Positions 21,977 through 46,383 of a stretch of DNA of 64,000 nt are shown in pieces (the first letter of the stretch is position 1; every line of letters starts with the position of its first letter). The notes under the pieces were generated by a model that worked only from the letters and a program-made list of their open reading frames with translations, ran no database searches and was not told where the DNA came from. The stretch is taken from contig JAMDDD010000004.1 in the NCBI GenBank assembly GCA_023489275.1, positions 27,802 through 91,801 of the forward strand, read 5' to 3'. Origin of the DNA: Actinomycetota bacterium (GTDB taxonomy: Bacteria; Actinomycetota; Thermoleophilia; BMS3ABIN01). A program made the translations under genes and the position numbers.

Positions 21977-22036
21977 AACCAGTTCAAAGTTAAAAGTTAA
22001 GCCCTTTAAATCAATTTGAATTTTAAACTCGGAACT

Positions 22037-24990: not shown

Positions 24991-25124
24991 TCGCCTTTGT
25001 CAAATATTTTCTTAAGTAGCTGTCCCGGGCTCGAAACTCCGGGAAATTTTACCCGCCGGGAAGGGCCAGGTAAAGGAAAAACCGGATTTTGGATTTTGGA
25101 CTCCGGATTTTTTAACCTCTAAAG

Positions 25125-26808: not shown

Positions 26809-26816
26809 CGGCGGTA

Positions 26817-27857: not shown

Positions 27858-27859
27858 CC

Positions 27860-27938
27860 AAGTTTCCCGTTGCCAGTTTCCGGTTTCGAGCATCGAGGCC
27901 GGAAACTTGAAACTCGACACCAGAAACTCGAAACTTTA
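27860..27938. repeat. intergenic word-repeat hairpin (AGTTTC/GAAACT units) between the GT2 and rSAM/SPASM genes
   Basis: cagtttccggtttcgag vs ccggaaacttgaaactcg / cagaaactcgaaact, seen directly. Confidence 0.6.
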
Positions 27939-27942
27939 GTTT

Positions 27943-29028
27943 ATGTATTCTCCCCTAAAATACGCGCCCCAGATTTTATTGAAGAACAGGCCGGTTCAGT
28001 TCACGTTCTTCGTTACCTCCCGCTGCAACGCCCGCTGCCCGTTTTGTTTTTACTGGCGCGGGCGGCACAGCAAGCGCCGGGAACTCGATCTGGACGAGAT
28101 CGAGAAGATCTCCCGCGGGATGGGAAGCCTGTTATGGTTGCTTTTTTCTGGCGGAGAGATCTTTCTGCGGCAGGACTTTGTCGATATCGCCGGCTCCTTT
28201 TACCGGAATAACAGACCCGCGATAATCACCCTGCCGACAAACGGGCTGGCCCCGGACCTGATCATCCCCAAGACGGAGGCGATCCTGGCCCTGGCCAGCA
28301 AAAGCGCGGTGGTGGTCAAGGTCTCGCTGGACGGCCTCGGCGATGAGCATGACCGGATCCGCAATACTCCCGGCAGCTTCGAAAAGGCGCTCGAGACCTG
28401 GGGAGAACTTAGCCGTCTGCGCGACCGCTTTCCCAACCTGCAGATCGGCATCAATACTGTTTTCTGCCGGGAAAATCAGGACCATATGGATCAGATCATT
28501 GATTTTGTCAACAATCTTCCCGGATGCGAAACCCATACAATCTCGCTGGTCAGAGGGGACCCGGCCGCACCTGAAACAAAGGATATCGATCTGGAGAAGT
28601 ACCGCCGGGCAATCATGCGTCTGGAGTCTGACTTGAAAGGGGCAAGCCCCAAGATGTACCATTTCAACCTGTCGCGGATAAAATCCGCACAGGATCTGGT
28701 CCAGCGGCAGCTCATCTATGAAACCGTGCGCCAGGGCCGTCGTCAACTTCGCTGCTTTGCCGGGCGCCTGGCTCTGGTCATGAACGAGGTGGGTGACGTC
28801 TTTCCTTGCGAGATTCTGGATGAGCAGATGGGAAACATCCGCGAGGCCGGCTACGATATGATGAAAATCTACCGGTCGTCACCGGCGGACGCCGTCCGGG
28901 CCCAGATCAGTAATTCCCGGTGTTATTGCTCTCACGAATGTTATTTCGTCACAAATATTCTTTTCAACCCCTTGATACACGGCAAGGTGATCAGGCAATA
29001 CGCGAGTCTGCCGCGGCCGGCCCGGTGA
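27943..29028 (+). CDS. radical SAM/SPASM-domain protein
   Basis: 361 aa; CNARCPFC radical SAM motif plus C-terminal auxiliary-cluster cysteines (RCFAG, FPCE, CYCSHEC). Confidence 0.8.
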   Translation: MYSPLKYAPQILLKNRPVQFTFFVTSRCNARCPFCFYWRGRHSKRRELDLDEIEKISRGMGSLLWLLFSGGEIFLRQDFVDIAGSFYRNNRPAIITLPTNGLAPDLIIPKTEAILALASKSAVVVKVSLDGLGDEHDRIRNTPGSFEKALETWGELSRLRDRFPNLQIGINTVFCRENQDHMDQIIDFVNNLPGCETHTISLVRGDPAAPETKDIDLEKYRRAIMRLESDLKGASPKMYHFNLSRIKSAQDLVQRQLIYETVRQGRRQLRCFAGRLALVMNEVGDVFPCEILDEQMGNIREAGYDMMKIYRSSPADAVRAQISNSRCYCSHECYFVTNILFNPLIHGKVIRQYASLPRPAR

Positions 29029-30725
29029 ACCGGGACCAGCCGGTCCTGCCGCGCGTTTCCGTTGTTGACAACGTGCGGCACGGCCGGATAGCGGCGGTGG
29101 CCCGTGCCACGGTTATCTTCCTGTTCGTTCTTGCCGTCACCGTGCCTTTCCTGGGACAGGCGTTTCACGTTGACGACGCCATCTTCTGGGACTTTGCCCG
29201 CAATAACCTGTCCCATCCCCTGGAGCAGCATCTGCCCAACTATTTTCTGATGGGGAAAGAAATTGCGGCGATGCGGGACACCCATCCGCCCCTGGATGAG
29301 CTTTATATCTCGCTGATAATGTCCATTGCGGGGGTCACCGCTTCGGAGTTTTTTTTCCATCTGGGATTCATCGTGTTTCCCCTGATTGCCGGCGTTTCCA
29401 TGTATTTCCTCGGCCGGCGCTTCACAAAGCATCCCCTCGCGGCAAGCCTGCTGTTCCTGTCGGCGCCGGCGGTAATGGTGATGTCGCACACGCTGATGGC
29501 GGACCTGCCGATGACGGCCCTCTGGATGGCCGCCACCGCCGCGTACATCTATGGTGTCGATGCGGACAGCCGGCGGCTGCTGGCGTTTTCGAGCCTGCTG
29601 ATAACGCTGGCAATTTTCATGGGGTACCAGTCTCTGGCCCTTCTTGTCCTCCTGCCGGCATACGCCTGGATCCGGCGGGGACGTCCAAGCCGCCGGAACG
29701 CTCTGCCGTTCTTGCTGCCGCTCCTGTCCTTCGCGCTGTTTACGTTGTTTAATTACGCCCGCTACGAGTCGCCTCCCCGCTTTTCTCACGCCGGCGGTCT
29801 GGGCGTAACAGAGAATGACGTCATCAGCCGGTTTCAGGGGATGATACTGGAAATGGGGGGCATAACAATTTTCCCGCCGCTGCTCGCGGCAGGGTTCATG
29901 CTGCGGCGCAAAAAATATCTGGCTTTGCCGCTAATCGCAGCGATCGCGGCGCTTCTCGGCTGGCGCCAGCTGGCGCCCGGTTATCCGGTCGCCAGCGCCG
30001 TTTTGTTTGGCATATTTGTCTTCGCGGGCGCCTCGATGCTGACAGGCCTGATTACAGAAGGAATAATCCAAATCGTCAACTGGGCCCGGCGCCTTCCGCT
30101 CGACCGGGATTTTCTTTTTCTGGCCCTGTGGCTGGTTTCAATCCTGGCGGCAATTGTCATCCTGCTGCCCCATACCCCGGCCAAATACTATCTGCCCGTA
30201 TTTGCCCCGTTGATCCTGTTGATGTTTCGTGAGGTGGAAACGGTATTTACTTCCCGGCGGATCGTGACCGGTTTTGCCGTCCTGGCCATCGTATTATCCT
30301 TAGTCACCGGCTTCTGGCTCTCGCTCGCCGACTACGAGCTGGCCCGGGCCTACAAGGACTTTGCCCTGTCCGTCCAGAGCCGCTACCGGCCCTCAGGCAC
30401 GGTCTGGTTTGTGGGGGAATGGGGATTCCGGCACTACATGGAGCAACAAAATTACAAATATCTAACCTCGGACAGCACCGCTCCGAAAAAGGGGGATTTG
30501 ATCATCGAGCCCAGTTACATGCAAAGGCCGGTAGCGCCTTCCCTCCAGAGCCGGATGCACCTGATCGGGGAACCGGCGGCCAATTGGGAGGTGCCGGTGC
30601 GGGTGATGAACATGCAGGCCGATGCCGGTTTTTACGGGACATACTGGGGCCGGCTGCCCTTTACCATTACCAGTCTCCCCCTGGAGCGGTTTAAGGTATT
30701 CCGCGTCGGGGACGGCAGCGGCTAG
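29025..30725 (+). CDS. GT-C-type membrane glycosyltransferase (ArnT/PMT, COG1807-like)
   Basis: ~11 TM helices with an acidic first-loop motif (HVDDAIFWDF) and a ~150-aa C-terminal extracytoplasmic domain; GTG start overlaps the upstream stop (GTGA), suggesting translational coupling. Confidence 0.6.
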   Translation: MNRDQPVLPRVSVVDNVRHGRIAAVARATVIFLFVLAVTVPFLGQAFHVDDAIFWDFARNNLSHPLEQHLPNYFLMGKEIAAMRDTHPPLDELYISLIMSIAGVTASEFFFHLGFIVFPLIAGVSMYFLGRRFTKHPLAASLLFLSAPAVMVMSHTLMADLPMTALWMAATAAYIYGVDADSRRLLAFSSLLITLAIFMGYQSLALLVLLPAYAWIRRGRPSRRNALPFLLPLLSFALFTLFNYARYESPPRFSHAGGLGVTENDVISRFQGMILEMGGITIFPPLLAAGFMLRRKKYLALPLIAAIAALLGWRQLAPGYPVASAVLFGIFVFAGASMLTGLITEGIIQIVNWARRLPLDRDFLFLALWLVSILAAIVILLPHTPAKYYLPVFAPLILLMFREVETVFTSRRIVTGFAVLAIVLSLVTGFWLSLADYELARAYKDFALSVQSRYRPSGTVWFVGEWGFRHYMEQQNYKYLTSDSTAPKKGDLIIEPSYMQRPVAPSLQSRMHLIGEPAANWEVPVRVMNMQADAGFYGTYWGRLPFTITSLPLERFKVFRVGDGSG

Positions 30726-30726
30726 A

Positions 30727-32166
30727 TCAGAACAGGAACTGTCTGGCGCTACGCAAATAATTGTTAAGAGTATGATAATTTTTCATGACGTGTATATGTT
30801 TAGCGATAATCCTCGGCCTCAAGTAGAATTCCCGGTACGCCTGCCGGGTTGCTTTGACCAGATCTTCGTGAGTTACGTTCCGATGCCGGTAAACCGGAAC
30901 GCCGGTAGGTACATAATCGCGCCAGTCCTTCATTATCAGTAGGCCCTCACGGCTGTATTTCTCGAACTCCTCGGTTCCCGGGAAGGGAACCATCACGGCA
31001 AAGCCCGCGCTGTCTAACTTTAGCTCCTTCGCAAAGGAGATCGTCTCAGCAATTGTCTCTTTCGTCTCTTCCAGGAAGCCAAAGAGAAAATAGCCGTGCG
31101 CCAGGATGCCAGCCCCGCGAGTCTGCCGCACCGCCTCTGCCACCCGCGCTTTGCTGATCTTCTTGATCTTGAGCAGCATCTCCGCGTTCCCCACTTCGAT
31201 GCCGTATTGCATCAGGCGGCAGCCCGCTTTTTTCATAGCCGCCAGCATCTCCGGGTCAATTTCGTTGGCCCGGGCGCTGCATGTCCAAGCGATAGAAAGA
31301 TTTTTTTCCTCGATAAGCCGGCATATCTCCATCAGCCTGTTCCGGTCACAAATCATTGACGGGTCGCGAAAAGAAAACGTCGTTACGCCGAAATCAAGGT
31401 TTAGCCAGCTGATTTCATCCACGATATTTTCAGCGCTCCGCAGGCGGTACCGTCTGCCCTGCTGGGAAGTAACATCGCAGAAGCTGCAACGATAAGGACA
31501 TCCGCGACCGCTGATGATGCACGAAAATTTTCCTCGGTTTCCCCAGGCCGGATACGGGTTATACCTGGCAGGTTCGGGTAGCAGATCATGAGCCGGAAAT
31601 GGAAGGCTGTCAAGGTCCGAATTTCGGGCGCGGCCAGGATTGTGCTTTGGAATATTGCCTCCATTCATTGAAACCGTGCCGGCGATATTACCGATCGGAG
31701 AACCCGCGGCCACCGCATCACAAATCTCCTGCATTGTTTCTTCGCCCTCTCCCACCACAGCTATATCTACCGCATGATGGCTGGCGGCCTCTGCCGGTAA
31801 AGCAGTCACATGAGGTCCGCCGACGGCGGTGCAGATGTTTTTATTAACTCCTTTGACGATCACCGCGACCTTTTCCGCGTCGGGCCATTGCGGCGTTAAA
31901 GAAGAAATGCCAACAATCTGGGGCTGGAAAGAACGCACGGCCTCTCTGATTTCGCTGGCGGACGACCCGATCGAATATCCGTCCAATATTTGGACCACAT
32001 GATGTTTCTGCCGAATAGCAGCGGCAATGTAAGCCAACCCCAGGGGCTGCGTAGAAATCCAGGGACGTTGCACAGAATCTTTCCAGAGCCCTGACGGCGG
32101 TGTAATCAACAGGACCTTCACAGCCGCGGCGGCGCCCGCTTGCTTATAATTGCAAGATTTAGTCAA
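30727..32166 (-). CDS. B12-binding-domain radical SAM protein (second paralogue)
   Basis: 479 aa; cobalamin-binding N-domain, CPYRCSFC motif; convergent with the GT-C gene (stops 2 nt apart). Confidence 0.85.
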   Translation of the reverse strand: MTKSCNYKQAGAAAAVKVLLITPPSGLWKDSVQRPWISTQPLGLAYIAAAIRQKHHVVQILDGYSIGSSASEIREAVRSFQPQIVGISSLTPQWPDAEKVAVIVKGVNKNICTAVGGPHVTALPAEAASHHAVDIAVVGEGEETMQEICDAVAAGSPIGNIAGTVSMNGGNIPKHNPGRARNSDLDSLPFPAHDLLPEPARYNPYPAWGNRGKFSCIISGRGCPYRCSFCDVTSQQGRRYRLRSAENIVDEISWLNLDFGVTTFSFRDPSMICDRNRLMEICRLIEEKNLSIAWTCSARANEIDPEMLAAMKKAGCRLMQYGIEVGNAEMLLKIKKISKARVAEAVRQTRGAGILAHGYFLFGFLEETKETIAETISFAKELKLDSAGFAVMVPFPGTEEFEKYSREGLLIMKDWRDYVPTGVPVYRHRNVTHEDLVKATRQAYREFYLRPRIIAKHIHVMKNYHTLNNYLRSARQFLF

Positions 32167-32265
32167 AGAATCCCCACCGGATCGTGTTTTATTTGAATAA
32201 CAAGAAAAGAGATTGCTTTCATACTAATGCTACAAGCAACGCCCTTGTTGGTCAATTGCGCGGGG

Positions 32266-32910
32266 CTAGTGTCCCCTTTTGCCCAGTAGCTCCCGGCACA
32301 CCGCCAGCGTGCTTTTGACGTCACTGGCAAACGCATCGACGCCCACATCGCGGGCCAGCTCTTCCGAGTGGGCGGCTCCGCCGGAAACAACCTTCACGCG
32401 TCCGCGCAGGCCGGCCTCCTCCAACGCCGTAAGGACCTCGACCAGCGCCTGCTTGGTGGAGGTAGTAAAGGCAGAGAGGAGGAGCAGGTCTGCGTTTACC
32501 TCCTTGACCCGATCCACGAATTTGCCGGCAGGCACATTCACGCCGAGATCGTGCACTTCGTAACCGGAGGCCCGGAGCGCCGACACGATGATATTCTTGC
32601 CTATATTGTGGATATCGCCTTTGACCGTCCCGATGACGATGACGCCGCTAAAGTCACGACGCCGCTCAAACAGATATGGATCCAGCAACGAAAGCGCTTT
32701 CTCCACCGCTTCAGCCGAGCGGAGCATTTCCGGGATAAAATACTCCCCTGTTTCGTATTTCCCGCCGACAGTTTCCATAGCCCCGGAAAGGCTGTTGATG
32801 ATTGCGTCGGGCCGAACCTCCGCCACCCTGGTTATATCCTCGGCGATGGCGGCGGCCGCGTCGGCGTCACCGTCAATGATGGCCTTTTGAAAACGGCTTA
32901 ACAAATCCAT
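32266..32910 (-). CDS. corrinoid (cobalamin-binding) protein of methyltransferase systems (MtaC/MtbC-like)
   Basis: 214 aa; N-terminal helical cap plus Rossmann B12 domain with the DxHxxG motif (DIHNIGKN). Confidence 0.8.
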   Translation of the reverse strand: MDLLSRFQKAIIDGDADAAAAIAEDITRVAEVRPDAIINSLSGAMETVGGKYETGEYFIPEMLRSAEAVEKALSLLDPYLFERRRDFSGVIVIGTVKGDIHNIGKNIIVSALRASGYEVHDLGVNVPAGKFVDRVKEVNADLLLLSAFTTSTKQALVEVLTALEEAGLRGRVKVVSGGAAHSEELARDVGVDAFASDVKSTLAVCRELLGKRGH

Positions 32911-32928
32911 ATCTGTTCATTGTCCGGG

Positions 32929-33936
32929 TTAATATTTTCCAAATTCCCTGCCAAATTCGACCAGAGCAGCCACATTCTCTTCCGGAGCGCTTGATGGTAT
33001 CGAGTCTCCGGTGCTAAGGATAAACCTTCCGCCGGGCTTCGCGGCCTCCAGGGCCGCCCGGACCGCGCTTTCGACATCGGCGCGGCTGCCTTTTTCAATA
33101 ACGCCGACCGCATCGATATTCCCCTTCAGCACCACTGCGCTTCCCACCGCCTCGCGCGCCTTGATCAGGTCAACGGGAGAGTCGATCTCGAGCACGGCAG
33201 CTCCGGTCCTGGCCATATCCGGCAGGATTGGCAGGCTGTTCCGGCAGACGTGCAGAATCACCGGCAGCTTTCCCCCGAGCTCTTTAACTGCTTCCGCTTC
33301 TGACGGAAAGGCAAATTCGAGGTAGTGCCCCGGGGAAATCATGCTCGAAGATGCAAAGGAATCCTTGATGACCAGGGCGTCGACCCCGGAGCCGGCAAGC
33401 GCCAGTCCCAGCGTTATCGTTGCCGGAAAACAGGCATCGATTAGATCCCGGACCAGCCCCGGGTTCCCGTAAAAATCGGTCATGAAGCCGATCAAACCGC
33501 GAACCGTCGCCGCGAATTCAAACGGCGACCGGACCGACCCGATGACAACGCTGTCGCCGGCCGCCTCGACCAGCTGCTGAACGGGCTCCATCTTTCCCTC
33601 CGCCCAGGGATCCGGAACCTTGACCTTGGTCAGATCCTCCGGGCCGTTGACCAGCGTGTCAACCACCAGCGGCACCTGATGCCCCCGCACCTCCAGGGGA
33701 CACCCAAGGACATTTGGATTTTCACCCAGGCCCATTTCGGCGACGACGCCGTCGCAGCCGAGCCGCCTCAGCCCCTCGGCCAGCGCCGCCGCCATGCAGG
33801 CGCCGTCCAGCCAGCATTCATCATTTTTCCGGCCGGTCAGCCGGGGGGCAAAGTACCCGTCCAGGACGGGGATGACAGGGACAAAATCGGGCTGCTCGCC
33901 GGCGATGACCGCCGCAAACCTGTCGCGGGGATTCAT
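32929..33936 (-). CDS. MtaA/CmuA-type methyltransferase (uroporphyrinogen decarboxylase, URO-D, fold)
   Basis: 335 aa; URO-D family TIM barrel; 19 nt upstream of the corrinoid protein gene. Confidence 0.7.
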   Translation of the reverse strand: MNPRDRFAAVIAGEQPDFVPVIPVLDGYFAPRLTGRKNDECWLDGACMAAALAEGLRRLGCDGVVAEMGLGENPNVLGCPLEVRGHQVPLVVDTLVNGPEDLTKVKVPDPWAEGKMEPVQQLVEAAGDSVVIGSVRSPFEFAATVRGLIGFMTDFYGNPGLVRDLIDACFPATITLGLALAGSGVDALVIKDSFASSSMISPGHYLEFAFPSEAEAVKELGGKLPVILHVCRNSLPILPDMARTGAAVLEIDSPVDLIKAREAVGSAVVLKGNIDAVGVIEKGSRADVESAVRAALEAAKPGGRFILSTGDSIPSSAPEENVAALVEFGREFGKY

Positions 33937-33963
33937 CCGGCGTCCCTCATCGAGAGCCCGGTT

Positions 33964-34311
33964 TCATGCCTGGACGGCCTCCAGATGCGGGGCTTCCTTC
34001 CAGAGGATTTCAAGACGGTAAAAATCGCGCGACTCCGGCGTGAAAATGTGCGCCATTACATTTAGATAATCCATCAAAATCCAGTCTCCCTCCTGCTCGC
34101 CCTCCACCCGGGGGGGAGCGGCGCCGGCGCTTTTCAGGCGCATCCTGATTTCTTCGCAGATTGCCTTCGCCTGGCGCGGATTACGGCCGGTGCAGATAAC
34201 AAAATAATCGGTAAAAGAACACGTGTCTTTCATTTCAAGGACGATGATGTCCTCGGCTTTTTTCTCAGCGGCCGCCGCCGCGATCTCTTTTGCCAGCTGT
34301 TCGTTATTCAG
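33964..34311 (-). CDS. rsfS: ribosomal silencing factor RsfS (Iojap), probable CTG start
   Basis: DYLNVMAHIFTPESRDFYRLEILW core; the conserved N-terminus (EQLAKEIAAAAAEKKAEDIIVLEM) lies upstream of the first ATG and is bounded by an in-frame stop, so only a CTG at 34311 (GAGAGGT RBS 5 nt upstream) can start it. Confidence 0.7.
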   Translation of the reverse strand: MNNEQLAKEIAAAAAEKKAEDIIVLEMKDTCSFTDYFVICTGRNPRQAKAICEEIRMRLKSAGAAPPRVEGEQEGDWILMDYLNVMAHIFTPESRDFYRLEILWKEAPHLEAVQA

Positions 34312-34347
34312 TTAGTACCTCTCATTACTATCAGCGATTAATCATCA

Positions 34348-35565
34348 TCATGAATTGCTTATATCTCTTCCTATAATAACAATGATTTGCTTCTTTTCCA
34401 GGGAGTCATCCTTGATTATCGTTCCCTTGCCCAGCAGATTCTCCACCTGCCCGCCGCCGTCAAGAGCGTCGCTGCCGCATCTGATCTGTGTGGAATCATA
34501 GCCTACATCTGACGCGTCGGTGGCAGGCGCCATCTTGAAACGGAGCGGCGCCAGTTTGGCGGTCACCGCGTCAATCACCGGCTGGCCGACACCGCCGTTC
34601 CGGATCTCGAGGGTAAACGCGGAATTGGCGGGGGAGCCGGACGTCAGCACGGAAAGCTCTGCCGGCTGCGGCTCAAAGTACCAGGCCTGGCCCTCCCCGG
34701 CAGCCTGCACCGGCAGCGCCCAGACGCCGAAAGGCTGTCCCGGGGTCGTAATGGAAACAAATAAATTGGCAAAGCTGTCCTCACCCAGGTCGGTCTGCAC
34801 CTGCCGGTAGAGCTGCCCGGCAAAGGTCCTCCGTTCGCCTTCGGGCTTGCCGCTGAGTCCCGCGAACAACCCCTGATAAAACAATGCCTGAATCTGCGGA
34901 CCGGCGCTGCCGTCATTGACAGTTTCATTTAGATATGACATGGCCTGCCGGGGGTCGGCAGGGTTGTCCCCCTTGCCAAGGTTGACGGACCCGTCGGCGC
35001 TCCGAAGCGGTTCCAGGGCCTTGAAATCGACACTGCCCGCCTCGGACGCCATCAGCCCTAGGGCGCCGGAATTAAAAATCACATGATAGCGGATGGGAAG
35101 CCGGAGCAGATCGGCCACCGTCTGGTCAAGTAAAGACTGGCCGCCGGTATTGATGATCTGGTCCAGCCGCTCAAAGCCGTGGCCCGGCACGTCCGCCAGC
35201 GTCCGCGCGGGCAGCGTGTAGAGGCTGTAACCTTTTTGAGAAACTTCCAGCAGCAAGATCTGGGTAAGATTTCCCTGGTCGATGCCGCTAAAGATAACGT
35301 TTTGGCTGTCTCCGGTTTCGGACCGGGCCGCCGCGGAACTTCCCCTGGATTTCTCCAGCAGGACGATGCCCGTAAATACGGCGGCAGAAAGAAATATGCC
35401 CGCGAGAAGAGTCAGGTATGTTTGCCGCCGGCGAAGACGCCGCCGCCGCTCGGCCAGCCGGGTCCGGCGCGAGCCGGGGGCCGGAACCTCGCCTGCCCGG
35501 GAGCGGTAATGGCTGCCGCGATAGCGCCGGCCCCGCCTATGCTTTTCGATAGAGCCCTTCCTCAT
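34348..35565 (-). CDS. LCP (LytR-CpsA-Psr) family protein with a LytR_C domain
   Basis: Arg-rich cytoplasmic N-terminus, one TM, LCP core (NVIFSGID...LYTLPARTLADVPGHGFERLDQIINTGG) and a C-terminal LytR_C-like domain; between nadD and rsfS. Confidence 0.65.
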   Translation of the reverse strand: MRKGSIEKHRRGRRYRGSHYRSRAGEVPAPGSRRTRLAERRRRLRRRQTYLTLLAGIFLSAAVFTGIVLLEKSRGSSAAARSETGDSQNVIFSGIDQGNLTQILLLEVSQKGYSLYTLPARTLADVPGHGFERLDQIINTGGQSLLDQTVADLLRLPIRYHVIFNSGALGLMASEAGSVDFKALEPLRSADGSVNLGKGDNPADPRQAMSYLNETVNDGSAGPQIQALFYQGLFAGLSGKPEGERRTFAGQLYRQVQTDLGEDSFANLFVSITTPGQPFGVWALPVQAAGEGQAWYFEPQPAELSVLTSGSPANSAFTLEIRNGGVGQPVIDAVTAKLAPLRFKMAPATDASDVGYDSTQIRCGSDALDGGGQVENLLGKGTIIKDDSLEKKQIIVIIGRDISNS

Positions 35566-36136
35566 AAATGAACCTGCGGACGCCCTCGGGCACCAGATAT
35601 CTGATTGACTTTCCTTCTGAAACGCGGTCTCTGATCATGGTTGAGGAAATGCCTATGCCCGGTATTTCCATGATTTTTACCTTTTTTGCCTGCAGAAATT
35701 TTTCCAGGTTTCCGGATATCCGGTCCAGCGGATAGCCGGGCCTGGTCGCCCCGATCAACATCACCATCGACAGCAGCTCATCGGGATCTTTCCACTCCAG
35801 GATCTCAAGAATGGCGTCAGCTCCGGAAATAAAATAAAGGTCTGATTCCGGCTGCTGCCGGCGGAAGTGACGGATGGTATCAACGGTGTAGCTTGTTTCT
35901 TCCCTGTTGATCTCGTAGCGGGAAACCTCAAAAAGGGGGTTGTCCCGGGTGGCGATCATGCACATTTGAAACCGCGCCCCAGAGCTTACCCCTTTTCTGA
36001 TTTCCTTGTGCGGAGGCAGGCCCGTGGGCATAAACAGCACTTGATCGAGCTCGAACTGCGACACAGCTTCCTCGGCGCAAACCAGATGACCGATATGAAT
36101 CGGGTTAAAAGTGCCGCCCATAATGGCTAACTTCAT
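35537..36136 (-). CDS. nadD: nicotinate-nucleotide adenylyltransferase
   Basis: MKLAIMGGTFNPIHIGHL nucleotidyltransferase motif. Confidence 0.92.
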   Translation of the reverse strand: MKLAIMGGTFNPIHIGHLVCAEEAVSQFELDQVLFMPTGLPPHKEIRKGVSSGARFQMCMIATRDNPLFEVSRYEINREETSYTVDTIRHFRRQQPESDLYFISGADAILEILEWKDPDELLSMVMLIGATRPGYPLDRISGNLEKFLQAKKVKIMEIPGIGISSTMIRDRVSEGKSIRYLVPEGVRRFIYEEGLYRKA

Positions 36137-36152
36137 AAAACCCCGGTTTCAA

Positions 36153-36222
36153 TGTCAAAGTTCAAAGTTTGTTAGAAAGCTGGTTCATAAGTTGGCAACA
36201 TTGAACTTTGAACTTTGAACTT
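36153..36222. repeat. intergenic word-repeat hairpin (CAAAGTT units) between proA and nadD
   Basis: gtcaaagttcaaagttt ... aacattgaactttgaactttgaac; ~15-bp stem, seen directly. Confidence 0.65.
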
Positions 36223-36227
36223 TTGAA

Positions 36228-37517
36228 CTAGGTCCTCACCTGCCCATCCCCGGTGACCACATATTTTGTCGAAGTCAGCTCGCGGAGGCCTACCGGCCCG
36301 CGGGCATGCAGCTTCTGCGTACTAATGCCGATTTCGGCGCCCATGCCGAATTGTCCTCCATCGGTAAACCTGGTTGACGCGTTGACATAAATACAGGCAG
36401 CGTCAACGCGGTCGGAGAAGTCGCGGGCGGCTCCCAGGTCTTCGGTGACGATCGCTTCTGAATGGCCGGTGCCGTAAGCGGCGATGTGGTCGATGGCCTC
36501 GTCCAGATTGTCAACAATCTTGACCGCCATTTTCAGGTCGAGAAATTCGGTGGCGAAATGCTCACTGACGGCGTCTTCCAGCTCTTTTGCCTTGCCGCCG
36601 GCGAGCTCCTTGACTTCCGGCGTTACAAACAGCTTCACTCCCCGGATTGTCAGCTCCTGGACGATCGAGGGAACAAAGTCGGCAGCGACGTCCTTGTGAA
36701 TGAGCAGCGTCTCCGCCGCGTTGCAGACGCCGGGGCGCTGCACCTTTGCGTTAACGGTGATCGCGGCTGCCTTCTCCAGGTCGGCGCCGGCATCGACATA
36801 AACGTGGCAGTTGCCGCCAGCGGCGTAAATCACCGGGATGGTGGAGTTCTTGATCAGGAACTGTTTGAGCGATTCGCCGCCGCGGGGGATGACCAGGTCG
36901 ACGTACTCCTTCATCGCCAGCAGTTTTTTAAGCGGGGCGCGGTCGCGGGAAGCCACCAGCTGCACCGCGTCGCTCGGCAGCCCGGCATCGAGCAGGGCGC
37001 CGCCCACCACTTCCGTCAGCATCCGGATGGAATGCAGCGAGGCGCTGCCGCCTCTGAGAATTACCGCGTTGCCGGTTTTAAGGCACAGGCCGGCCGCATC
37101 GGTGGTGACGTTGGGGCGGGCCTCATAAATGACGGCAACGACACCGAAGGGCACCCGCACCTTCTTCAGCTCCAGCCCGTTGGGAAGGCGCCGGCCTTCA
37201 ACCACCTCACCCACCGGATCGGGCAGGTGGACCAGCTTGCGCAGGCCGGCCGCCATCTCCCTGATTCTGTCTTCATCCAGCATTAGCCGGTCCATCAAGG
37301 CACCGGAGAGGCGGGCGGCCTTTCCTTCCTTGACGTCATCCCGGTTCTCCCTGATGATCTCCCCCTTGCGTCGCTCCAGGGCGGCTGCCATCTCCAGCAG
37401 CGCCCGGTTGCGGTCCATCGTGGGAAGGCCGGCAAGCTGCCGCGAAGCCGCTTTCGCGCGTTGACATATTTCTGTTATTTGCGAGCTGTTATCTTTTTCT
37501 TTCCTGGATGGCACCAA
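36228..37517 (-). CDS. proA: gamma-glutamyl phosphate reductase
   Basis: 429 aa aldehyde dehydrogenase-fold ProA; immediately downstream of proB. Confidence 0.95.
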   Translation of the reverse strand: MVPSRKEKDNSSQITEICQRAKAASRQLAGLPTMDRNRALLEMAAALERRKGEIIRENRDDVKEGKAARLSGALMDRLMLDEDRIREMAAGLRKLVHLPDPVGEVVEGRRLPNGLELKKVRVPFGVVAVIYEARPNVTTDAAGLCLKTGNAVILRGGSASLHSIRMLTEVVGGALLDAGLPSDAVQLVASRDRAPLKKLLAMKEYVDLVIPRGGESLKQFLIKNSTIPVIYAAGGNCHVYVDAGADLEKAAAITVNAKVQRPGVCNAAETLLIHKDVAADFVPSIVQELTIRGVKLFVTPEVKELAGGKAKELEDAVSEHFATEFLDLKMAVKIVDNLDEAIDHIAAYGTGHSEAIVTEDLGAARDFSDRVDAACIYVNASTRFTDGGQFGMGAEIGISTQKLHARGPVGLRELTSTKYVVTGDGQVRT

Positions 37518-37520
37518 AAT

Positions 37521-38627
37521 TTATCCCTCCGCCAAAACAAAATAATCCCGATGAACTACTTCTTCCTCTCCGTGCGGCATCGCCTTGATCACATCGCCGC
37601 TTTGCATTCCTTTGATCCTGTCAAGTTCCTTCGCCGAATACGCCGCCACCCCTTTGCCGATCACTGCCCGGCTCTTTTCCTCCAGAACGTCCACCGCCTC
37701 TCCGGCGGCGAATTCCCCCTCGACCGCGACAATTCCCGCCGCCAGCAGGCTCTTTCCCCGCCGCCGCAAAGCCTCAGCGGCGCCCGCGTCAACAATGATC
37801 GCCCCGCTGCTGGGCCGGCCGTATTTCAGCCAAAGCTTGAAACTGCTCATGGTAGGCTTCAGCGGATGGAACCTGGTTCCAACCCTTTCACCCGCCGCCG
37901 CCGCCCTGATGACCCCGGCGCGCCCGCCGCTGGCGATCACCACCTCAATGTTGGCGGAAGTGGCCATATCCGCCGCCACAATCTTGCTTTTCATACCGCC
38001 GGAGCCAATCGAGCTGGACGGCTCCCCGGCTTCGATTCTGTCCAGCAGGGACCGGTCGCTCACTTCTTCAATCAGACGGGCGTGGGGATCCACGGAAGGG
38101 TCATTAGTATATAACCCTTCCGTATCCGTGAGCAACAGGAGCAGGTCCGCCTGCACCAGAATGGCAACCTGGGCCGCCAGAAAATCATTGTCCCCGTACC
38201 GGATCTCATCCGCCGATGTTGTGTCGTTTTCATTGATAACGGGAACGATCCCCCATTCCAGCAGCTTCCTGAGCGTGCCGCGGGCGTTCAGGTACTGGCT
38301 GCGGGCCTCGATGTCATATGAAGTAAGCAGAACCTGCGCGGTAGTGATTCCGGCGGCGCCAAGCAGCTCAAAGTAGCGTTGATAGAGCCTGCCCTGCCCT
38401 ATTGCTGAAACGGCCTGCAGCTCCACCGTTTCCACCGGACGCCGTCCGGCCGGCAGCAGCCCCAGGCCGCAAGAGATCGCGCCCGAGGAGACAACCAGCA
38501 GGCCGTTGCCGCTCCGGACCAGTTCGGCGATATCACCGGTTAACCTTGTGACCTGGTCTTCACGGACGCAGCCGCTCTCATCGGTGAGGGTATTGCTTCC
38601 GATTTTGACGACGATGATTTTTGACAG
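37521..38627 (-). CDS. proB: glutamate 5-kinase (with PUA domain), probable CTG start
   Basis: the first canonical start (GTG 38435) would delete the conserved N-terminal ATP-binding block (KIIVVKIGSNTLTDE), which is in-frame upstream and bounded by a stop at 38640; the only candidates are CTG at 38627 or ATC at 38633, with an AAGGAA RBS. Confidence 0.8.
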   Translation of the reverse strand: MSKIIVVKIGSNTLTDESGCVREDQVTRLTGDIAELVRSGNGLLVVSSGAISCGLGLLPAGRRPVETVELQAVSAIGQGRLYQRYFELLGAAGITTAQVLLTSYDIEARSQYLNARGTLRKLLEWGIVPVINENDTTSADEIRYGDNDFLAAQVAILVQADLLLLLTDTEGLYTNDPSVDPHARLIEEVSDRSLLDRIEAGEPSSSIGSGGMKSKIVAADMATSANIEVVIASGGRAGVIRAAAAGERVGTRFHPLKPTMSSFKLWLKYGRPSSGAIIVDAGAAEALRRRGKSLLAAGIVAVEGEFAAGEAVDVLEEKSRAVIGKGVAAYSAKELDRIKGMQSGDVIKAMPHGEEEVVHRDYFVLAEG

Positions 38628-38768
38628 CTTGATTGTTCCTTAACCGCGGGCGGCGCAGGGGAAAAAGCCTGCAGCCGCACATTCAGGGACGGCGAGGACT
38701 TCTTCTTCCTGAGGACGCCGCCCATGTCCTTTACAGCCCCCGCTCCGAATGATCCTTGTCACAGATTC

Positions 38769-40052
38769 CTAGAACGGCGCCGCTGACGGCGCGCGATTGC
38801 TGACCTCTACCCGTTGAATATCCGCCCCCAGCGCCTGCAGTTTTTGCTCAAAATTCTCGTAACCGCGATCGATATGACCGATGCGCCGCACCTCGGTCGT
38901 GCCGGCCGCCGCGAGGCCTGCCAGCGCCAGGGCGGCGCCGGCGCGCAGGTCGGGCGCCTCCACAATGGCTCCCTCCAGACGGCTCTGACCGTGAACGACG
39001 GCGTGATGGCCGCTCGTGCGGATGCTCGCGCCCAGCCGGTTCATTTCATCGACAAACACGAAACGGTTCTCGAAGACGTTTTCCGTGACGATACTATGCC
39101 CCCGCGCCAGGGACAGCAGCACCAATACCGGCGCCTGCAGATCTGTGGGAAATCCGGGATGCGGCAAAGTGGCGATATCAGTGCTGTGAAACTCGCCGGC
39201 GCCGCGGCACCGGATCTTGTGATCGAACTCCTGGACCTCAACGCCGATCGATCTCAGCTTGCTGATAAAGATTTCCAGGTGCAGCGGATTGACATCCTCG
39301 ATCACCAGATCGCCGCGAGTCACCGCCGCCGCGATCATGAAGGTGCCGGCTTCAATCCGGTCCGGTACGACCGTGTGGGTGGCGCCGGCCAGTTCGTCAA
39401 CACCATCGATGATGACGGTCTCGGAGCCGGCGCCGCTGATGCGCGCGCCCATCGAAGTCAAAAATTTGGCCAGATCAATGATCTCGGGTTCTCTGGCGGC
39501 GGATTCGATCACCGTGCGTCCGCGCGCCGTCACCGCGGCCATCATGATGTTCTCGGTGGCGCCGACGCTGGGATAGTCGAGACTGATTACGTCACCTGTA
39601 AGCCCATTTGTATCAACATTGATAAACCCGTGCTCAACATTGATGCGGGCTCCCAGCTTTTCCAGACCGCTTAAGTGGAAGTCAATTTTCCGCGGCCCGA
39701 TATTGCAGCCGCCCGGCATCGCGACCCGCGCCCGGCCCAGCCGCGCCAGCAGCGGCCCCATGACAATGATGGAGGCGCGCATCTGGCGGACCAGTTCGTA
39801 CGGCGCCGTGTCGGAGAGACCGCCGGACGGATCGATCTCCACCCGCTCCGGCGTGACAGTGACGCCGGCGCCCAGTTCCCGGAGGACGCTCGCCATCGTG
39901 CGGACGTCTTTGATCATGGGGACGTTTTGCAGGATAGTCTTATCCGGGGTGAGAAGCGCCGCCGCCATCAGCTTCAGGGCTGAATTCTTGGCTCCGGAAA
40001 CCCTGACCGCGCCCGTCAGCGGATTGCCGCCGTTTATTAAAAAAGATTCCAT
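38769..40052 (-). CDS. murA: UDP-N-acetylglucosamine 1-carboxyvinyltransferase
   Basis: 427 aa; MurA N-terminus (NGGNPLTGAVRVSGAKNSALKLMAAALL) and catalytic Cys in MPGGCNIGPR. Confidence 0.95.
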   Translation of the reverse strand: MESFLINGGNPLTGAVRVSGAKNSALKLMAAALLTPDKTILQNVPMIKDVRTMASVLRELGAGVTVTPERVEIDPSGGLSDTAPYELVRQMRASIIVMGPLLARLGRARVAMPGGCNIGPRKIDFHLSGLEKLGARINVEHGFINVDTNGLTGDVISLDYPSVGATENIMMAAVTARGRTVIESAAREPEIIDLAKFLTSMGARISGAGSETVIIDGVDELAGATHTVVPDRIEAGTFMIAAAVTRGDLVIEDVNPLHLEIFISKLRSIGVEVQEFDHKIRCRGAGEFHSTDIATLPHPGFPTDLQAPVLVLLSLARGHSIVTENVFENRFVFVDEMNRLGASIRTSGHHAVVHGQSRLEGAIVEAPDLRAGAALALAGLAAAGTTEVRRIGHIDRGYENFEQKLQALGADIQRVEVSNRAPSAAPF

Positions 40053-40061
40053 AAACCAGAC

Positions 40062-40152
40062 ATTGGATCTTGGACATTGGACATTGGATACCCATTCACC
40101 TGGAATTCCAACCTGGATATCGATCCACAGTTTTTATCCAAAGTCCAATGCC
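40062..40152. repeat. intergenic word-repeat inverted repeat (ACATTGGAC units) between atpC and murA
   Basis: gacattggacattggat ... atccaaagtccaatg, seen directly. Confidence 0.6.
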
Positions 40153-40171
40153 TAAATTCCTGTCTCCGCTG

Positions 40172-40588
40172 TTACAGACCGGCGACCTTGATCCGGTTGA
40201 GAGCTCTCCGGCGGGCCCGCTGCGCGCGGTGCGTGTCCACCCCTTCTTCCTGGCTGCGGCCCAGCCATGACTCGGCCCGCGCCAGAGCCGCCTGGGCCCG
40301 TTCAATGTCAATCTCTGACGCCATTTCCGCAGTGTCAACCAGAAGCAACAGCCTGTCGAACTGCATCTTGGCATATCCGTCTCCCACGGCCAGTTCCTGC
40401 CGGCCGGTTGTTTCGCCGTACACGTGGGCCCTGCCGATTACCGTACTGGTCACGATCGGCGCATGCCGGGGCATGATGCCGAGCTCTCCCGTCTCGCCGG
40501 GGATGACTACTATCAAAGCGTCATCGCTCAAAATGAGCCCTTCCGGCGTAACGATCTCGCATTGGAGCCTTTTGCTAGTTTCTTCCAT
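40172..40588 (-). CDS. atpC: F1 ATP synthase epsilon subunit
   Basis: LQCEIVTPEGLILSDDALIVVIPGETGELGIMPRHAP. Confidence 0.9.
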   Translation of the reverse strand: MEETSKRLQCEIVTPEGLILSDDALIVVIPGETGELGIMPRHAPIVTSTVIGRAHVYGETTGRQELAVGDGYAKMQFDRLLLLVDTAEMASEIDIERAQAALARAESWLGRSQEEGVDTHRAQRARRRALNRIKVAGL

Positions 40589-40615
40589 ATCCGCAGGCCT
40601 TTTCCTTCCTGGCGC

Positions 40616-42085
<1,470 letters not shown>

Positions 42086-42104
42086 TCACTCCCTATAAAA
42101 TCAG

Positions 42105-42175
42105 GTTTCCAGTTTCTGGTTTCTAGTCTCTAGTTGTCATTTTTACAGGTTTTAACTAGAAACTGGAAACTATAA
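42105..42175. repeat. intra-operon hairpin (AGTTTC units) between atpG and atpD
   Basis: ccagtttctggtttctagt ... actagaaactggaaact (15/17 complementary). Confidence 0.6.
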
Positions 42176-42186
42176 ACTCAAAACTT

Positions 42187-43080
42187 TTATCCTAAAGCTT
42201 CCGCTCCCGCTACAACTTCCAGGATGTCCTGCGTAATCGCCGCCTGGCGCGCCTTGTTCATCGCCAGAGTCAGCTTTCCGACCATCTCCTCGGCGTTTTC
42301 CGAAGCGCTGCGCATCGCCGTCATCCGGGCGCCATGCTCGCTGGCGGTTGATTCCAGCAGTGCCCGGTAAATTGTGTTATCAACATAACTGGGGAGCAGG
42401 CTCCGGAGGATGCCGGCAGCGCTGGGCTCATAAATGAAATCCCCTTGCAGCTTTCGCGCTTCCTCGGAAACCTCGGGCTCCGTCGTCACGATCTCCTCAC
42501 CCAGAGGCAGAATCACCTCTTCGGTAACGGTTTGCTCCATGGGGGACTTGAAATGGTTGTACACAAGATAAACGCGGTCAACTTCACCCGCGATATACAT
42601 GGTAACAACGCGGTGGGCGATATCTTCCGCATCGGTAAATTTGGGGCGGTCGGTAATGCCGGTGATCGCCTCCCTCACGTTGACCCCGCGGAAGCGCATG
42701 GTGCCTACTCCCTTGCGGCCGACAATGACCCACTCAACGCCCTTGCCCTCGGCGTGCGCGGCGCTCTGGATTGACAGGGAATGCCTGATGATGTTGGCGT
42801 TAAACGCTCCGGCCAGGCCGCGGTCGCCGGTCAACATGACGATAGCGATCCGCTTTTCCTCGTCGTGCACCTTAAGCAACGGAAATTCTTCACCGCCCTC
42901 GGAGTGCCGGGCGACTTCCTGCATTAACTCCATCATCCGCTCGGCGTAAGGCCTCAGCGCTTCGATGCGATTCTGGGCGCGCCGGAGCCGGGCGGCCGCC
43001 ACCATCTCCATGGCCTTGGTGGTCTTGCGAGTATTTTTTACCGAAGCAATCCGGCGTGCTATATCTCTGAACGCTGCCAT
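42187..43080 (-). CDS. atpG: F1 ATP synthase gamma subunit
   Basis: 297 aa with the conserved gamma termini. Confidence 0.9.
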   Translation of the reverse strand: MAAFRDIARRIASVKNTRKTTKAMEMVAAARLRRAQNRIEALRPYAERMMELMQEVARHSEGGEEFPLLKVHDEEKRIAIVMLTGDRGLAGAFNANIIRHSLSIQSAAHAEGKGVEWVIVGRKGVGTMRFRGVNVREAITGITDRPKFTDAEDIAHRVVTMYIAGEVDRVYLVYNHFKSPMEQTVTEEVILPLGEEIVTTEPEVSEEARKLQGDFIYEPSAAGILRSLLPSYVDNTIYRALLESTASEHGARMTAMRSASENAEEMVGKLTLAMNKARQAAITQDILEVVAGAEALG

Positions 43081-43193
43081 CAGATATTATTCCTGATCAA
43101 TTTTAACATCCTGTTTCCAGCTGTCATTCCGAGGAGCAAAGCGGCGAGGAGCCTCCAGCTCCTTCGCTTCGCTCAGGATGACAATATCGTTGT

Positions 43194-44783
43194 TTAAGCC
43201 GTGGCCGCTTCTGCAGCTTCCGGTTCCGCGGCCGTGGGCGCCGGCACATTCAGCTGCTCATGGTCCGGCTGGAAGTCCTTCAGGAATTCCTCCATGGCGG
43301 CGCGGAGCCTGGCATCGGTGTCGTCCGAGATTTCCTTCTCTTCGCGGATCACGGTCAGAAGCTCCGGATGCTCGCTGTGCAGCCGGGCGATCAGGCCGGA
43401 GTTGAAGTCCGGAACGCGGTCTACGCTGACCTTGTCCAGGAATCCCTGGGTCGCGGCAAAAATAACCGCTACCTCCTCTTCAACCGGAAAGGGCTGATAC
43501 TGCCCCTGGTTAAGAGCGGCAACCATCCGCTCGCCCCGGGCCAGCTGCGCCTGCGTCGCCGCATCCAGCTCCGAGCCGAACTGCGCAAAAGCCTTTAGCT
43601 CGTTGTACTGGGCCAGGTCAAGCCGAAGCTTGCCGGCAACCTTCTTCATCGCCTTGATCTGGGCGTCGCCGCCAACGCGGCTGACCGAGATGCCGACGTT
43701 GATGGCCGGCCGCACGCCGGAGTAAAACAGGTCCGGCTCGAGGAAGATCTGGCCGTCCGTGATCGAAATGATATTGGTCGGGATGTAAGCTGAGACGTCA
43801 CCGGCCTGGGTTTCCACGACTGGCAGAGAAGTGATCGAGCCACCGCCGAGGTCATCGGACAACTTGACGCCGCGTTCCAGCAACCGTGAATGCAGGTAGA
43901 AGACGTCACCGGGATAAGCTTCGCGCCCCGGCGGACGCCTGAGCAGCAGCGACATCTGGCGGTAGGCGTCAGCGTGCTTGGTCAGATCGTCGTAGATACA
44001 CATGGCTTCGCCGCCCTTGTAGCAAAAATATTCAGCCATCGCGGTGCCGACATAGGGGGCCATGAACTTCAGCGGCGCGCGCTCGGAGGCGGCGGCGAGC
44101 ACAACAATCGTATAATCCATGGCGCCGTGCTCTTCCAGTTTGGCGACGACGCTGGCCACATTGGAAGCCTTCTGGCCAATCGCCACATAGATGCAGATTA
44201 CATCCTGCCCCTTCTGATTGATGATGGTGTCCACCGCGATGGCCGTCTTGCCGGTGCGGCGGTCGCCGATGATCAGCTCGCGCTGACCGCGGCCGATGGG
44301 GATCATCGAGTCGATCGACTTGATTCCGGTCTGCAGCGGCGTGCTTACGTGCTGCCGGGCAATCACGCCCGGGGCCTTGAACTCGACCGGCCGGTACTCG
44401 GATGTCTCGATCGGGCCCCTGTCGTCGATCGGCCTCCCGAGAGCATTGACAACGCGGCCGATCAGCGCTTCTCCCACCGGCACGCTCATGACCCTGCCAG
44501 TGCGCTTGACCAGGTCGCCCTCTTGAATCAGGGTGTCCTCGCCCATCAACACGGCGCCGACATTGTCTTCTTCCAGGTTTAGCGCCAGGCCCACGACATC
44601 GTGGGGAAGCTCGAGCATCTCCGATGCCATCGCCTTCTCCAGGCCGTGGATGCGGGCGATGCCGTCACCGACCTCGAGAACGCGGCCGACCTCTTCAACC
44701 TCGACCTCAGCCTCGTAGTTCTCAATCTGGCTCTTGAGAACAGCGGTAATTTCTTCAGGACGCAGTTTCAAAGCTATCTTCAC
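43194..44783 (-). CDS. atpA: F1 ATP synthase alpha subunit
   Basis: [23 protein letters not shown] Walker A. Confidence 0.97.
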
Positions 44784-45330: not shown

Positions 45331-45332
45331 GC

Positions 45333-45854: not shown

Positions 45855-45905
45855 CTCCTAAGCCGTCAGGGCCGGGCATCACGCCTTGGCGCCGTGCCCA
45901 ACCTT

Positions 45906-46383
<478 letters not shown>

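Follow-up and report, generated by a model that had tools for sequence, protein, structure and literature searches.

Seven-nucleotide repeat arrays and their inverted pairs turn over rapidly in the intercistronic spacers of a Thermoleophilia-related actinobacterium

Tandem repeats with a unit of seven nucleotides have been noted several times in the intergenic DNA of prokaryotes: in 1990 as the short tandemly repeated repetitive (STRR) sequences of cyanobacteria, in 2007 in a survey of long simple sequence repeats (LSSR), and in 2015 in Xanthomonas and in Beggiatoaceae. Neither a function nor a mechanism of origin has been accepted. The cyanobacterial STRR heptamers are said to go back to Mazel et al. 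in 1990, and three heptamers reportedly occur in Calothrix. As summarised in two later papers, heptanucleotides are the most abundant class of long simple sequence repeats in many prokaryotes, show a scattered phylogenetic distribution and have polymerase slippage as their proposed source (Mrazek, Guo and Shah, 2007, summarised in PMC4679880 and PMC4692102). In Xanthomonas, arrays of GGGAATC form 70-75 pairs per genome that converge on opposite strands and are capable of forming stem-loops; the same gene pairs flank arrays in two species, where array length and sequence vary while the array type (single or inverted) is kept, and they are transcribed, with no function identified (Rehm et al., 2015, PMC4692102). 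Arrays of TAACTGA in marine Beggiatoaceae, cyanobacteria and Bacteroidetes are found a short way upstream of start codons that have no ribosome-binding site, and a post-transcriptional regulator has been proposed for them (MacGregor, 2015, PMC4679880). Here we describe heptameric arrays in a 64,000-nucleotide (nt) stretch of contig JAMDDD010000004.1 from a Thermoleophilia-related actinobacterium (hereafter the window), among them an inverted pair of arrays that fills the spacer between proA and nadD at positions 36146-36229.

Genes in the window were mapped from codon-position G+C and checked with Pfam; the map holds about 50 open reading frames (ORFs), 46 of which, in the main frame, were scanned against Pfam. 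Coding DNA amounts to about 57 kb, and intergenic DNA to 45 gaps totalling 7,027 nt, 36 of them at least 40 nt long. Strict arrays, defined as at least three units with at least 85% self-match, occur with period 7 nine times in the 7,027 nt of intergenic DNA and not once in the approximately 57 kb of coding DNA, while no strict array of period 5, 6 or 8-12 was found in intergenic DNA of the window. An unbiased count gave the same picture: 65 intergenic cases of one triplet occurring three times at a spacing of 7 nt, compared with 1, 6, 1, 5 and 2 cases at spacings of 5, 6, 8, 9 and 10 nt, respectively. Coding DNA yielded 18 cases at a spacing of 7, which is background, the only excess being the expected one at multiples of three. 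Tandem Repeats Finder (TRF) reported about 15 period-7 arrays, essentially all in spacers. The first-pass annotation of this DNA had spoken of words of 6-9 nt in nearly every intergenic gap; by all three measures the unit is exactly 7 nt, and the distribution had been overstated, as arrays occupy about 12 of the 36 spacers of at least 40 nt, plus a 19-nt gap at 5532-5550, and only six spacers hold an inverted pair, each of them between co-directional genes. Five arrays (at 1894, 19720, 21069, 42154 and 46353) also have a 14-nt higher-order period according to TRF, meaning that blocks of two units were duplicated. The signal is genuine, statistically strong and lineage-specific, and the arrays have the tandem 7-nt unit, the non-coding bias and the rapid variation between relatives of the heptameric LSSR/STRR class.

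The inverted pairs fill nearly the whole of their spacers, from 0-20 nt past one stop codon to 5-24 nt ahead of the next start codon. In the proA-nadD spacer, a left array, (GTYCAAA)n at 36146-36171, is paired with a right array, (AACTTTG)4.6 at 36196-36229, which overlaps the proA stop codon. The plus strand over 36146-36229 reads ..GTTTCAATGTCAAAGTTCAAAGTTTG..(loop)..CAACATTGAACTTTGAACTTTGAACTTTTGAACT, also given as ...TGTCAAAGTTCAAAGTTTG, a 24-nt loop and CAACATTGAACTTTGAACTTTGAACTTTTGAACT, and the arms contain a perfect 15-nt inverted repeat (36155-36169 with 36204-36218). The atpG-atpD spacer (42104-42186) has (GTTTCNN)4 at 42104-42135 and (AACTNNA)4 at 42154-42186; the atpC-murA spacer (40059-40152) has (GGAYNTT)4 at 40059-40091 and TATCCAAAGTCCAATGCC at 40135-40152; and the yebC-ruvC spacer (16046-16145) has (GTTTCNN)3-4 at 16046-16074 and its complement at 16114-16145. 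Between the genes for a family 2 glycosyltransferase (GT2) and a SPASM-type radical S-adenosylmethionine (SAM) protein, (GTTTCNN)4 and (GAAACTN)5 are separated by a 3-nt loop (27861-27936). The sixth pair is a distant one in the spacer between an IMPDH-like and an RpiR-like gene (20930-21100), with (GTTCCAA-type)3 at 20930-20959 and (TGGAACC)4 at 21068-21100 on either side of a 108-nt loop.

Folding was scored on the sense strand as a z-score against 200 dinucleotide shuffles. Five of the six inverted pairs were significantly stable: 36137-36227 (z -2.06), 42083-42186 (z -3.18; -5.7/-3.4 in a separate fold run), 40053-40171 (z -3.69), 27858-27942 (z -3.58) and 16019-16149 (z -3.08). The sixth, 20927-21106, was significant on the antisense strand only (z -3.40; sense -1.47), and the antisense strand of 36137-36227 scored -3.8. 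Nine spacers had been listed at first as hairpins, and the shuffled controls bore this out for these six, with the strand limit just given. They did not do so for 1890-1945 (z 0.0) and 25078-25115 (z 0.04), which are single direct arrays, or for 21977-22036, which is weak (z -1.36); about 22 other spacers likewise folded no better than their shuffles. The stem-loops of the inverted pairs are long, imperfect and capable of several pairing registers, with AT-rich stems and loops of 18-108 nt in five of the six, that of 27858-27942 being 3 nt. When the two strands were compared by a G-U pair test, the transcribed strand was energetically favoured in two of the six pairs, which amounts to no preference, as expected from a symmetric origin at the level of DNA.

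Once the units had been phased, a common TGGA core for all words, considered initially, was dropped, and the words resolved into two degenerate families. (GTT-N4)n accounts for most arrays, its units including GTTTCNN, GTTCAAA, GTTCCAA, GTTTAAC and GTTAAAC, and (GGAY-N3)n for the remainder; AAC/GTT and GGA/TCC also lead the periodic triplets of the unbiased count. Among 73 units of the GTT family, positions 1-3 are conserved at 88-95% and positions 4-7 at 42-66%. Adjacent units differ at positions 1 to 7 in 6, 8, 7, 20, 20, 25 and 28 of 54 pairs, respectively (chi-square p=3e-5), and the GGAY family has the same pattern of core and variable positions (p=0.003). The proposal that word composition differs between copies while an unusual architecture is kept was thus half right: the architecture recurs, but the words are related through shared cores of 3-4 nt, and paired inverted heptamer arrays had already been described for the GGGAATC repeats of Xanthomonas (PMC4692102). 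At the variable positions, the match is 0.74 between the two arms of one hairpin and 0.53 between arms of different hairpins (Mann-Whitney p=0.002); the arms have therefore been copied from each other and do not merely belong to the same family.

For comparison with relatives, ProA searches of genome and metagenome contigs gave best protein identities of 73% and 64%, in relatives without arrays, the closest in a set of species-representative genomes being uncultured Thermoleophilia and Actinomycetota metagenome-assembled genomes (MAGs) at no more than 73% identity. A graded series of closer relatives was obtained from searches with AtpC and YebC followed by exact-protein look-ups. It comprises contigs L162 and L167 from assembly GCA_014874265.1, with 93-95% coding identity to the window (94-95% for L162 and 93% for L167); L168, which is 97-98% identical; and L169-L173, whose YebC proteins are 87-90% identical (the yebC gene of L169 and L170 is 82% identical). 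Fourfold degenerate sites, 87.8% identical between the window and L162 (n=812), served as the neutral yardstick. An assembly artefact was rejected, as L001, a contig assembled independently in Logan, agrees with the window at every position for 6.1 kb, two hairpins included.

Against this yardstick the atpC-murA hairpin spacer, at 90.8% identity to L162, diverges at about the neutral rate, and the repeat-free murA-proB spacer is 84% identical. Other spacers are rearranged or replaced altogether. The proA-nadD hairpins share a word family but differ by many insertions and deletions (91 nt in the window and 108 nt in L162), and the atpB-atpE spacers differ by an 86-nt insertion or deletion and by six changes, clustered in a stretch of 10 nt, through which units have come to resemble each other. 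The atpG-atpD spacers cannot be aligned: L162 has a hairpin of CAAAGCT (four units) and AACTTTG (three units) where the window has GTTTCNN and NNGAAAC. The atpA-atpG spacers cannot be aligned either, the window carrying a GC-rich palindrome and L162 a non-folding direct array, (CGTTAAA)3.5 (z -0.27). At yebC-ruvC, the hairpin is kept in L168, where two substitutions erase the difference between a unit and the one next to it, and a single inserted nucleotide brings back the 7-nt register; L167 instead has a member of the GC-rich palindrome family, unrelated to the heptamer hairpin. In more distant relatives the same spacer has no significant structure (L169 and L171, YebC 89-90%), is weakly structured (L172, 87%) or is only 5 nt long (L173). 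The element is therefore dispensable at this junction. The atpC-murA hairpin is conserved in five related contigs, which represent three haplotypes; among these three, the whole sample available for covariation, changes in the stem are non-compensatory, and in L162 they are absorbed by pairing in a slipped register. Judged from these alignments, the element sequences evolve neutrally or faster and whole elements come and go, and the comparative data give no sign of purifying selection on them. Period-7 arrays were absent from L169-L173 and from the closest proA relatives, L002-L009. The idea of a genome signature of the lineage can be upheld for a narrow lineage, namely the window and its relatives at 93-98% nucleotide identity, L162 and L168.

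The elements match the LSSR/STRR class, already known, of heptameric simple-sequence repeats between genes, including the inverted pairs of the Xanthomonas type; they differ in host lineage, in an AT-rich make-up that has no potential for G-quadruplexes, in having two degenerate core families and in how fast they turn over. As in the LSSR/STRR sequences, the period is 7, the arrays are intergenic, their distribution is scattered, several heptamers occur per genome and a slippage origin has been proposed. The summarised descriptions of that class concern direct arrays, unlike the inverted-pair hairpins and the structure of core plus variable spacer seen here. The likeness to the GGGAATC and GGGGA(C/T)T repeats of Xanthomonas and Nostoc extends to tandem 7-nt units spread genome-wide with a non-coding bias, typically about four units per array, and to unrelated housekeeping genes flanking the arrays. 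Six opposite-strand stem-loop pairs of the Xanthomonas type were found, but not its G-rich GGGNATC unit: units here (GTTTCNN, GTTCAAA, GGAYNTT) are AT-rich, have no run of three or more G and hence cannot form a G-quadruplex. In place of the single 7-nt consensus of Xanthomonas there are two degenerate families with cores of 3-4 nt. Whole-element replacement, moreover, is seen here already at 94-95% coding identity. TAACTGA arrays are likewise short (2-6 units), intergenic and followed by genes without a common function, and several arrays in the window end 5-10 nt ahead of an ATG without a Shine-Dalgarno sequence. In contrast to TAACTGA, which is one exact word whose related heptamers are not repeated and in which 1 of 170 sets is indirect, the units here are degenerate and inverted pairs are common.

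We consider it somewhat probable that these are slippage-generated heptameric repeats whose inverted pairs are kept by DNA copying from arm to arm, and that they form incidental intercistronic stem-loops with, at most, a generic and dispensable effect. Arrays would be born and remodelled unit by unit, through replication slippage or conversion. The complementarity of the arms would be maintained mainly by copying at the DNA level, either template switching in quasi-palindromes or inverted duplication, and not by selection on an RNA, while whole elements would be gained, lost and swapped quickly. Because the elements sit inside operons and would be transcribed, they would form generic stem-loops on polycistronic mRNA, which may act as barriers to 3' exonucleases or insulate downstream translation, such effects being incidental and dispensable. 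The location inside operons, pointed out from the outset, holds for atpG/atpD, atpC/murA, proA/nadD, yebC/ruvC and GT2/radical SAM, and arrays often occupy the entire intercistronic spacer, beginning at the stop codon and stopping about 5-22 nt short of the following start codon. This explanation is supported by the specificity for period 7, by the changes in L162 and L168 that homogenise units, by the swaps of elements, by the Xanthomonas precedent and by similar hairpins in the unrelated loci L010, L015 and L148.

Several observations weigh against it. A core of 3 nt alongside variable positions is not predicted by slippage with uniform decay, and such a conserved core might be recognised by something. 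No more than two core families cover nearly all arrays, and the five independent hairpins of the GTT family in the window all share one polarity, 5'-(GTTN4)n-loop-(N4AAC)n-3', which reads alike on both strands; two hairpins in the orthologous atpG-atpD and proA-nadD spacers of L162 have the GTT-family polarity as well. The conserved 3-nt core with its four variable positions, together with this single polarity, is the main feature left unexplained. In the relative that is 94-95% identical, four of five orthologous spacers contain some element able to form a hairpin despite sequence replacement, which could reflect selection for structure. Several genes directly 3' of arrays lack a recognisable Shine-Dalgarno sequence: the start codons at 1889, 21107, 27943 and 40052 (ABC1 kinase, RpiR-like, SPASM radical SAM and murA) are ATG, adjoin arrays and have none, and where the adjoining array is of the GTT family, as in three of these genes, the final AAC core precedes the ATG by 8-9 nt, although the survey of Shine-Dalgarno sequences is noisy, and hence not decisive, since many start codons are longest-ORF calls. 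Finally, slippage, template switching and any consequence at the RNA level are processes that we infer from sequence.

Alternatively, the arrays could be periodic binding sites for an oligomeric protein that reads the 3-nt core every 7 nt, a possibility we regard as unlikely but by no means negligible. HutP binds NAG-N4 repeats, and TRAP triplet repeats, on RNA. On duplex DNA, the ribbon-helix-helix protein omega (ParB) of plasmid pSM19035 coats runs of adjoining 7-bp heptads, direct as well as inverted, so that mixed-orientation heptads are a proven binding architecture (PMC9499535). With these systems the arrays share, as a mechanistic analogy, units of 7 bp or 7 nt or a triplet followed by a 4-nt spacer. 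If the sites were read on RNA, in the manner of HutP or TRAP, the complementary arm might form a competing structure, masking the sites or the start region downstream, a refinement to which we attach the same low probability. Besides the conserved core with its four variable positions, the restriction to two core families, the leading triplets AAC/GTT and GGA/TCC and the single polarity of the GTT-family hairpins, such a protein would account for 3' arms that end 5-24 nt ahead of start codons, often without a Shine-Dalgarno sequence, and MacGregor's proposed regulator of TAACTGA arrays is of a similar kind (PMC4679880). The comparative data argue otherwise, since the spacers are neutral or replaced between genomes 94-95% identical, in one case by a palindrome free of heptamers, and more distant relatives have unstructured or 5-nt spacers. 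The omega, HutP and TRAP systems have few specific sites and a defined cognate protein, unlike the dozens of fast-turnover sites found here between unrelated chromosomal housekeeping genes, and no candidate binding protein was found by Pfam among the 46 main-frame ORFs of the window. Relative to omega/ParB sites in particular, the conserved core and variable positions are present, but the inverted arrays are not contiguous, with loops lying between them, and binding to duplex DNA would leave the match between arms at variable positions unexplained.

In its boldest form, the 7-nt-spaced cores (GUU/AAC and GGAY) would be the recognition code of a novel oligomeric RNA- or DNA-binding protein acting globally at intercistronic junctions, which we think doubtful indeed. 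Competition between occupancy by the protein and pairing with the other arm would then open or close the region upstream of the next start codon, and comparable systems might underlie the heptamers of Xanthomonas, cyanobacteria, Beggiatoaceae and several Firmicutes.

It is also conceivable, though in our judgement quite unlikely, that the elements are selected as intercistronic RNA stem-loops without a specific protein, tuning segmental mRNA stability or translational coupling as repetitive extragenic palindromes (REPs) and bacterial interspersed mosaic elements (BIMEs) do in the operons of enterobacteria; heptamer arrays would then simply be the easiest route to hairpins for this lineage, a corollary no more probable than the proposal itself. 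All six inverted pairs lie between co-directional genes in operon-like clusters, five of the six have significant sense-strand folds, and some hairpin persists at atpG-atpD, proA-nadD, atpC-murA and yebC-ruvC in relatives despite replacement. Tandem arms also permit slipped re-pairing after mutation, as the L162 atpC-murA fold illustrates. Selection on the transcript is, however, difficult to reconcile with the lack of preference for the transcribed strand (two of six), with stem substitutions in the L162 atpC-murA element that are not compensatory, with unstructured spacers at atpA-atpG in L162 and at yebC-ruvC in L169 and L171, with the 5-nt spacer of L173 and with divergence at the neutral level.

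Mobile palindromes of the REP/BIME type, or transposable elements of the miniature inverted-repeat kind (MITEs), spread by a REP-associated tyrosine transposase (RAYT) or another transposase, are a very improbable source of the heptamer arrays. REPs are a conserved family of 20-40-nt sequences mobilised by RAYT transposases. As with the REPs and BIMEs of enterobacteria and pseudomonads, the hairpins here are extragenic, are found inside operons and in many spacers, and differ in their occupancy of orthologous spacers between strains, up to replacement of whole elements; by the same analogy, an effect as a barrier to 3' exonucleases on mRNA is plausible. Copies here, in contrast, share only a periodic 3-nt core and an internal 7-nt periodicity, whereas there is no relation between them in loop, flank or length of the arms. 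Direct arrays without a partner are numerous, terminal inverted repeats accompanied by target-site duplications were not seen, and no near-identical copies occur in the 64 kb of the window or in about 46 kb from the close relatives L162, L167 and L168. Neither a RAYT nor any other transposase was found among the 46 main-frame ORFs scanned. With no conserved 20-40-nt palindrome, the label REP-like, given to the elements initially, does not apply, and an identity as MITEs was rejected for want of near-identical copies and because of the many unpaired direct arrays.

A true small mobile or REP-like family does look to be present beside the heptamers, in the form of a dispersed GC-rich palindrome. 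Its representative in the window, TGTCATYCTGAGCGAAGCGAAGGAG..., occupies 43122-43183 in the atpA-atpG spacer, is not heptameric and folds strongly (z -5.4). The family, TGTCATYCTGAGCGAAGCGAAGGA...TCCTCGGAATGACA, recurs in L167 (at about 2823-2890), L002 (about 2250-2290), L169 (about 555-590) and L150 (about 12000), without a match in Rfam. It sits in atpA-atpG in the window, in yebC-ruvC in the 93% identical relative and in proA-nadD in the relative with 73% ProA identity, and therefore substitutes for heptamer elements at orthologous sites, an exchange that a mobile origin of the heptamers themselves would also have accounted for.

Intrinsic terminators or attenuators are hardly credible, for although the stem-loops lie in transcribed spacers and some have a T-rich stretch nearby (for example ..CTGATTTTAT after 42083-42186, on the minus strand), none of 29 terminator-like sites in 27001-47000 overlaps a heptamer hairpin, the stems are AT-rich with loops of 18-108 nt in five of six and no adjacent T-run, and elements lie within the essential atp operon, where termination would be harmful. 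An Rfam family was rejected as an identity also, there being no match in the whole window at the gathering score, and searches of 35.5-47 kb in E-value mode gave chance-level matches only (for example mir-3914, 26 bits against a gathering score of 97).

Outside the lineage the heptamer phenomenon is sporadic across phyla. In a set of 150 loci, each 4 kb or longer, the excess at period 7 had a median of about zero; the window, L162 and L001 were all within the ten highest, and the other high scorers were unrelated loci from Firmicutes and Actinomycetota. Arrays occur sporadically in unrelated loci from a Clostridia MAG (L046), Ca. Subteraquimicrobium (L010), an Actinomycetes MAG (L015), a Peptococcaceae MAG (L059), Clostridium tyrobutyricum (L066) and a metagenome contig (L148), with words such as (CTAACGG)n, (CACTTCC)10 and (TAGTTGG)4. 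Clear inverted-pair hairpins are found in L010 (1247-1300), L015 (4284-4345) and L148 (8040-8125), and other long arrays in L046 (316-441 and 9875-9995), L059 (11222-11290) and L148 (2856-2915).

To the record of heptameric repeats the present lineage adds a clean AT-rich case, in which G-quadruplexes are impossible and hairpin pairs are dominant. It adds direct evidence, from genomes 93-98% identical, that elements are remodelled and swapped fast while the flanking genes stay intact, and a position-specific pattern that a pure slippage model does not predict. Taken together, they allow a test of whether the repeats are by-products of mutation or periodic binding sites. Annotators should treat such spacers as simple-sequence hairpins, and not as REPs, terminators or genes for small RNAs.

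The remaining arrays of the window are mostly single. A direct array of four GTTCAAA/GTTCCAA units with the 14-nt higher-order period (1892-1921) stops 5 nt upstream of the ABC1-kinase start codon, and (CGTTTAA)3 (5535-5558) fills the 19-nt tgt-yajC gap. Two arrays in divergent spacers, (ATCCACC)2.6 at 9498-9518 and (ATCCAGA/ATTCAGA)4.4 at 19720-19751, are of the GGAT type on the minus strand. The array GTTCAAA GTTAAAA GTTAAGC in a convergent spacer (21980-22036) has a weak inverted partner at 22015-22036. A divergent spacer (25084-25245, plus strand) holds two direct GGA-family arrays, (GGATTTT)4 at 25084-25111 and (TGGGATG)3 at 25223-25245, and no hairpin. The atpB-atpE spacer (46176-46382) combines (GGATGGT-type)4 at 46352-46382 with a CGGATNC-period-7 palindrome at 46176-46215. 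In L169, an array-free relative (YebC 90%), a spacer at 461-680 carries three copies of a repeat of about 31 nt, CCATCCTGAATCGCTGTC(A/G)CCCC(G)GG.

Similarity of L168 to the window spans 10.5-20.9 kb, and beyond 20922 there is no BLASTN similarity, even though the genes (RpiR-like, AP_endonuc_2, S26 peptidase, RACo) follow in the same order; the position of this break, at the hairpin spacer 20927-21106, suggests a recombination boundary. One heptamer hairpin is located within an island of lower G+C (25351-32166; 0.54-0.55) that encodes two B12-binding radical-SAM proteins, the GT2 glycosyltransferase, the SPASM radical-SAM protein and a PMT_2 glycosyltransferase, and that may be a horizontally acquired cluster for glycan or peptide modification. 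A 248-nt spacer without heptamers (13401-13648), upstream of an MMPL transporter gene, also folds beyond its shuffles (z -3.1, plus strand); L167 and L168 show good conservation of its proximal part, and it may be a promoter and leader region.

The window as a whole has a G+C content of 60% and carries housekeeping genes, namely secDF, tgt, queA/queH, ruvABC, yebC, pdxST, rsfS, nadD, proBA, murA, the atp operon, glyA and lexA, along with genes for a Y-family polymerase and a large tetratricopeptide repeat (TPR) protein and the island of B12-radical-SAM and glycosyltransferase genes; no tRNA or tmRNA genes were found in it. At 58660-60752, a gene for a LexA-like repressor (helix-turn-helix and Peptidase_S24) lies immediately upstream of one for a Y-family (IMS) DNA polymerase, an SOS-type pair that is ordinary, yet a relevant backdrop for a lineage with hypervariable repeats. 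Tandem DNA repeats of 99-102 nt (82-92% matches) at 61317-63954 are the TPR units of one protein of more than 1,049 amino acids, which continues past the end of the window.

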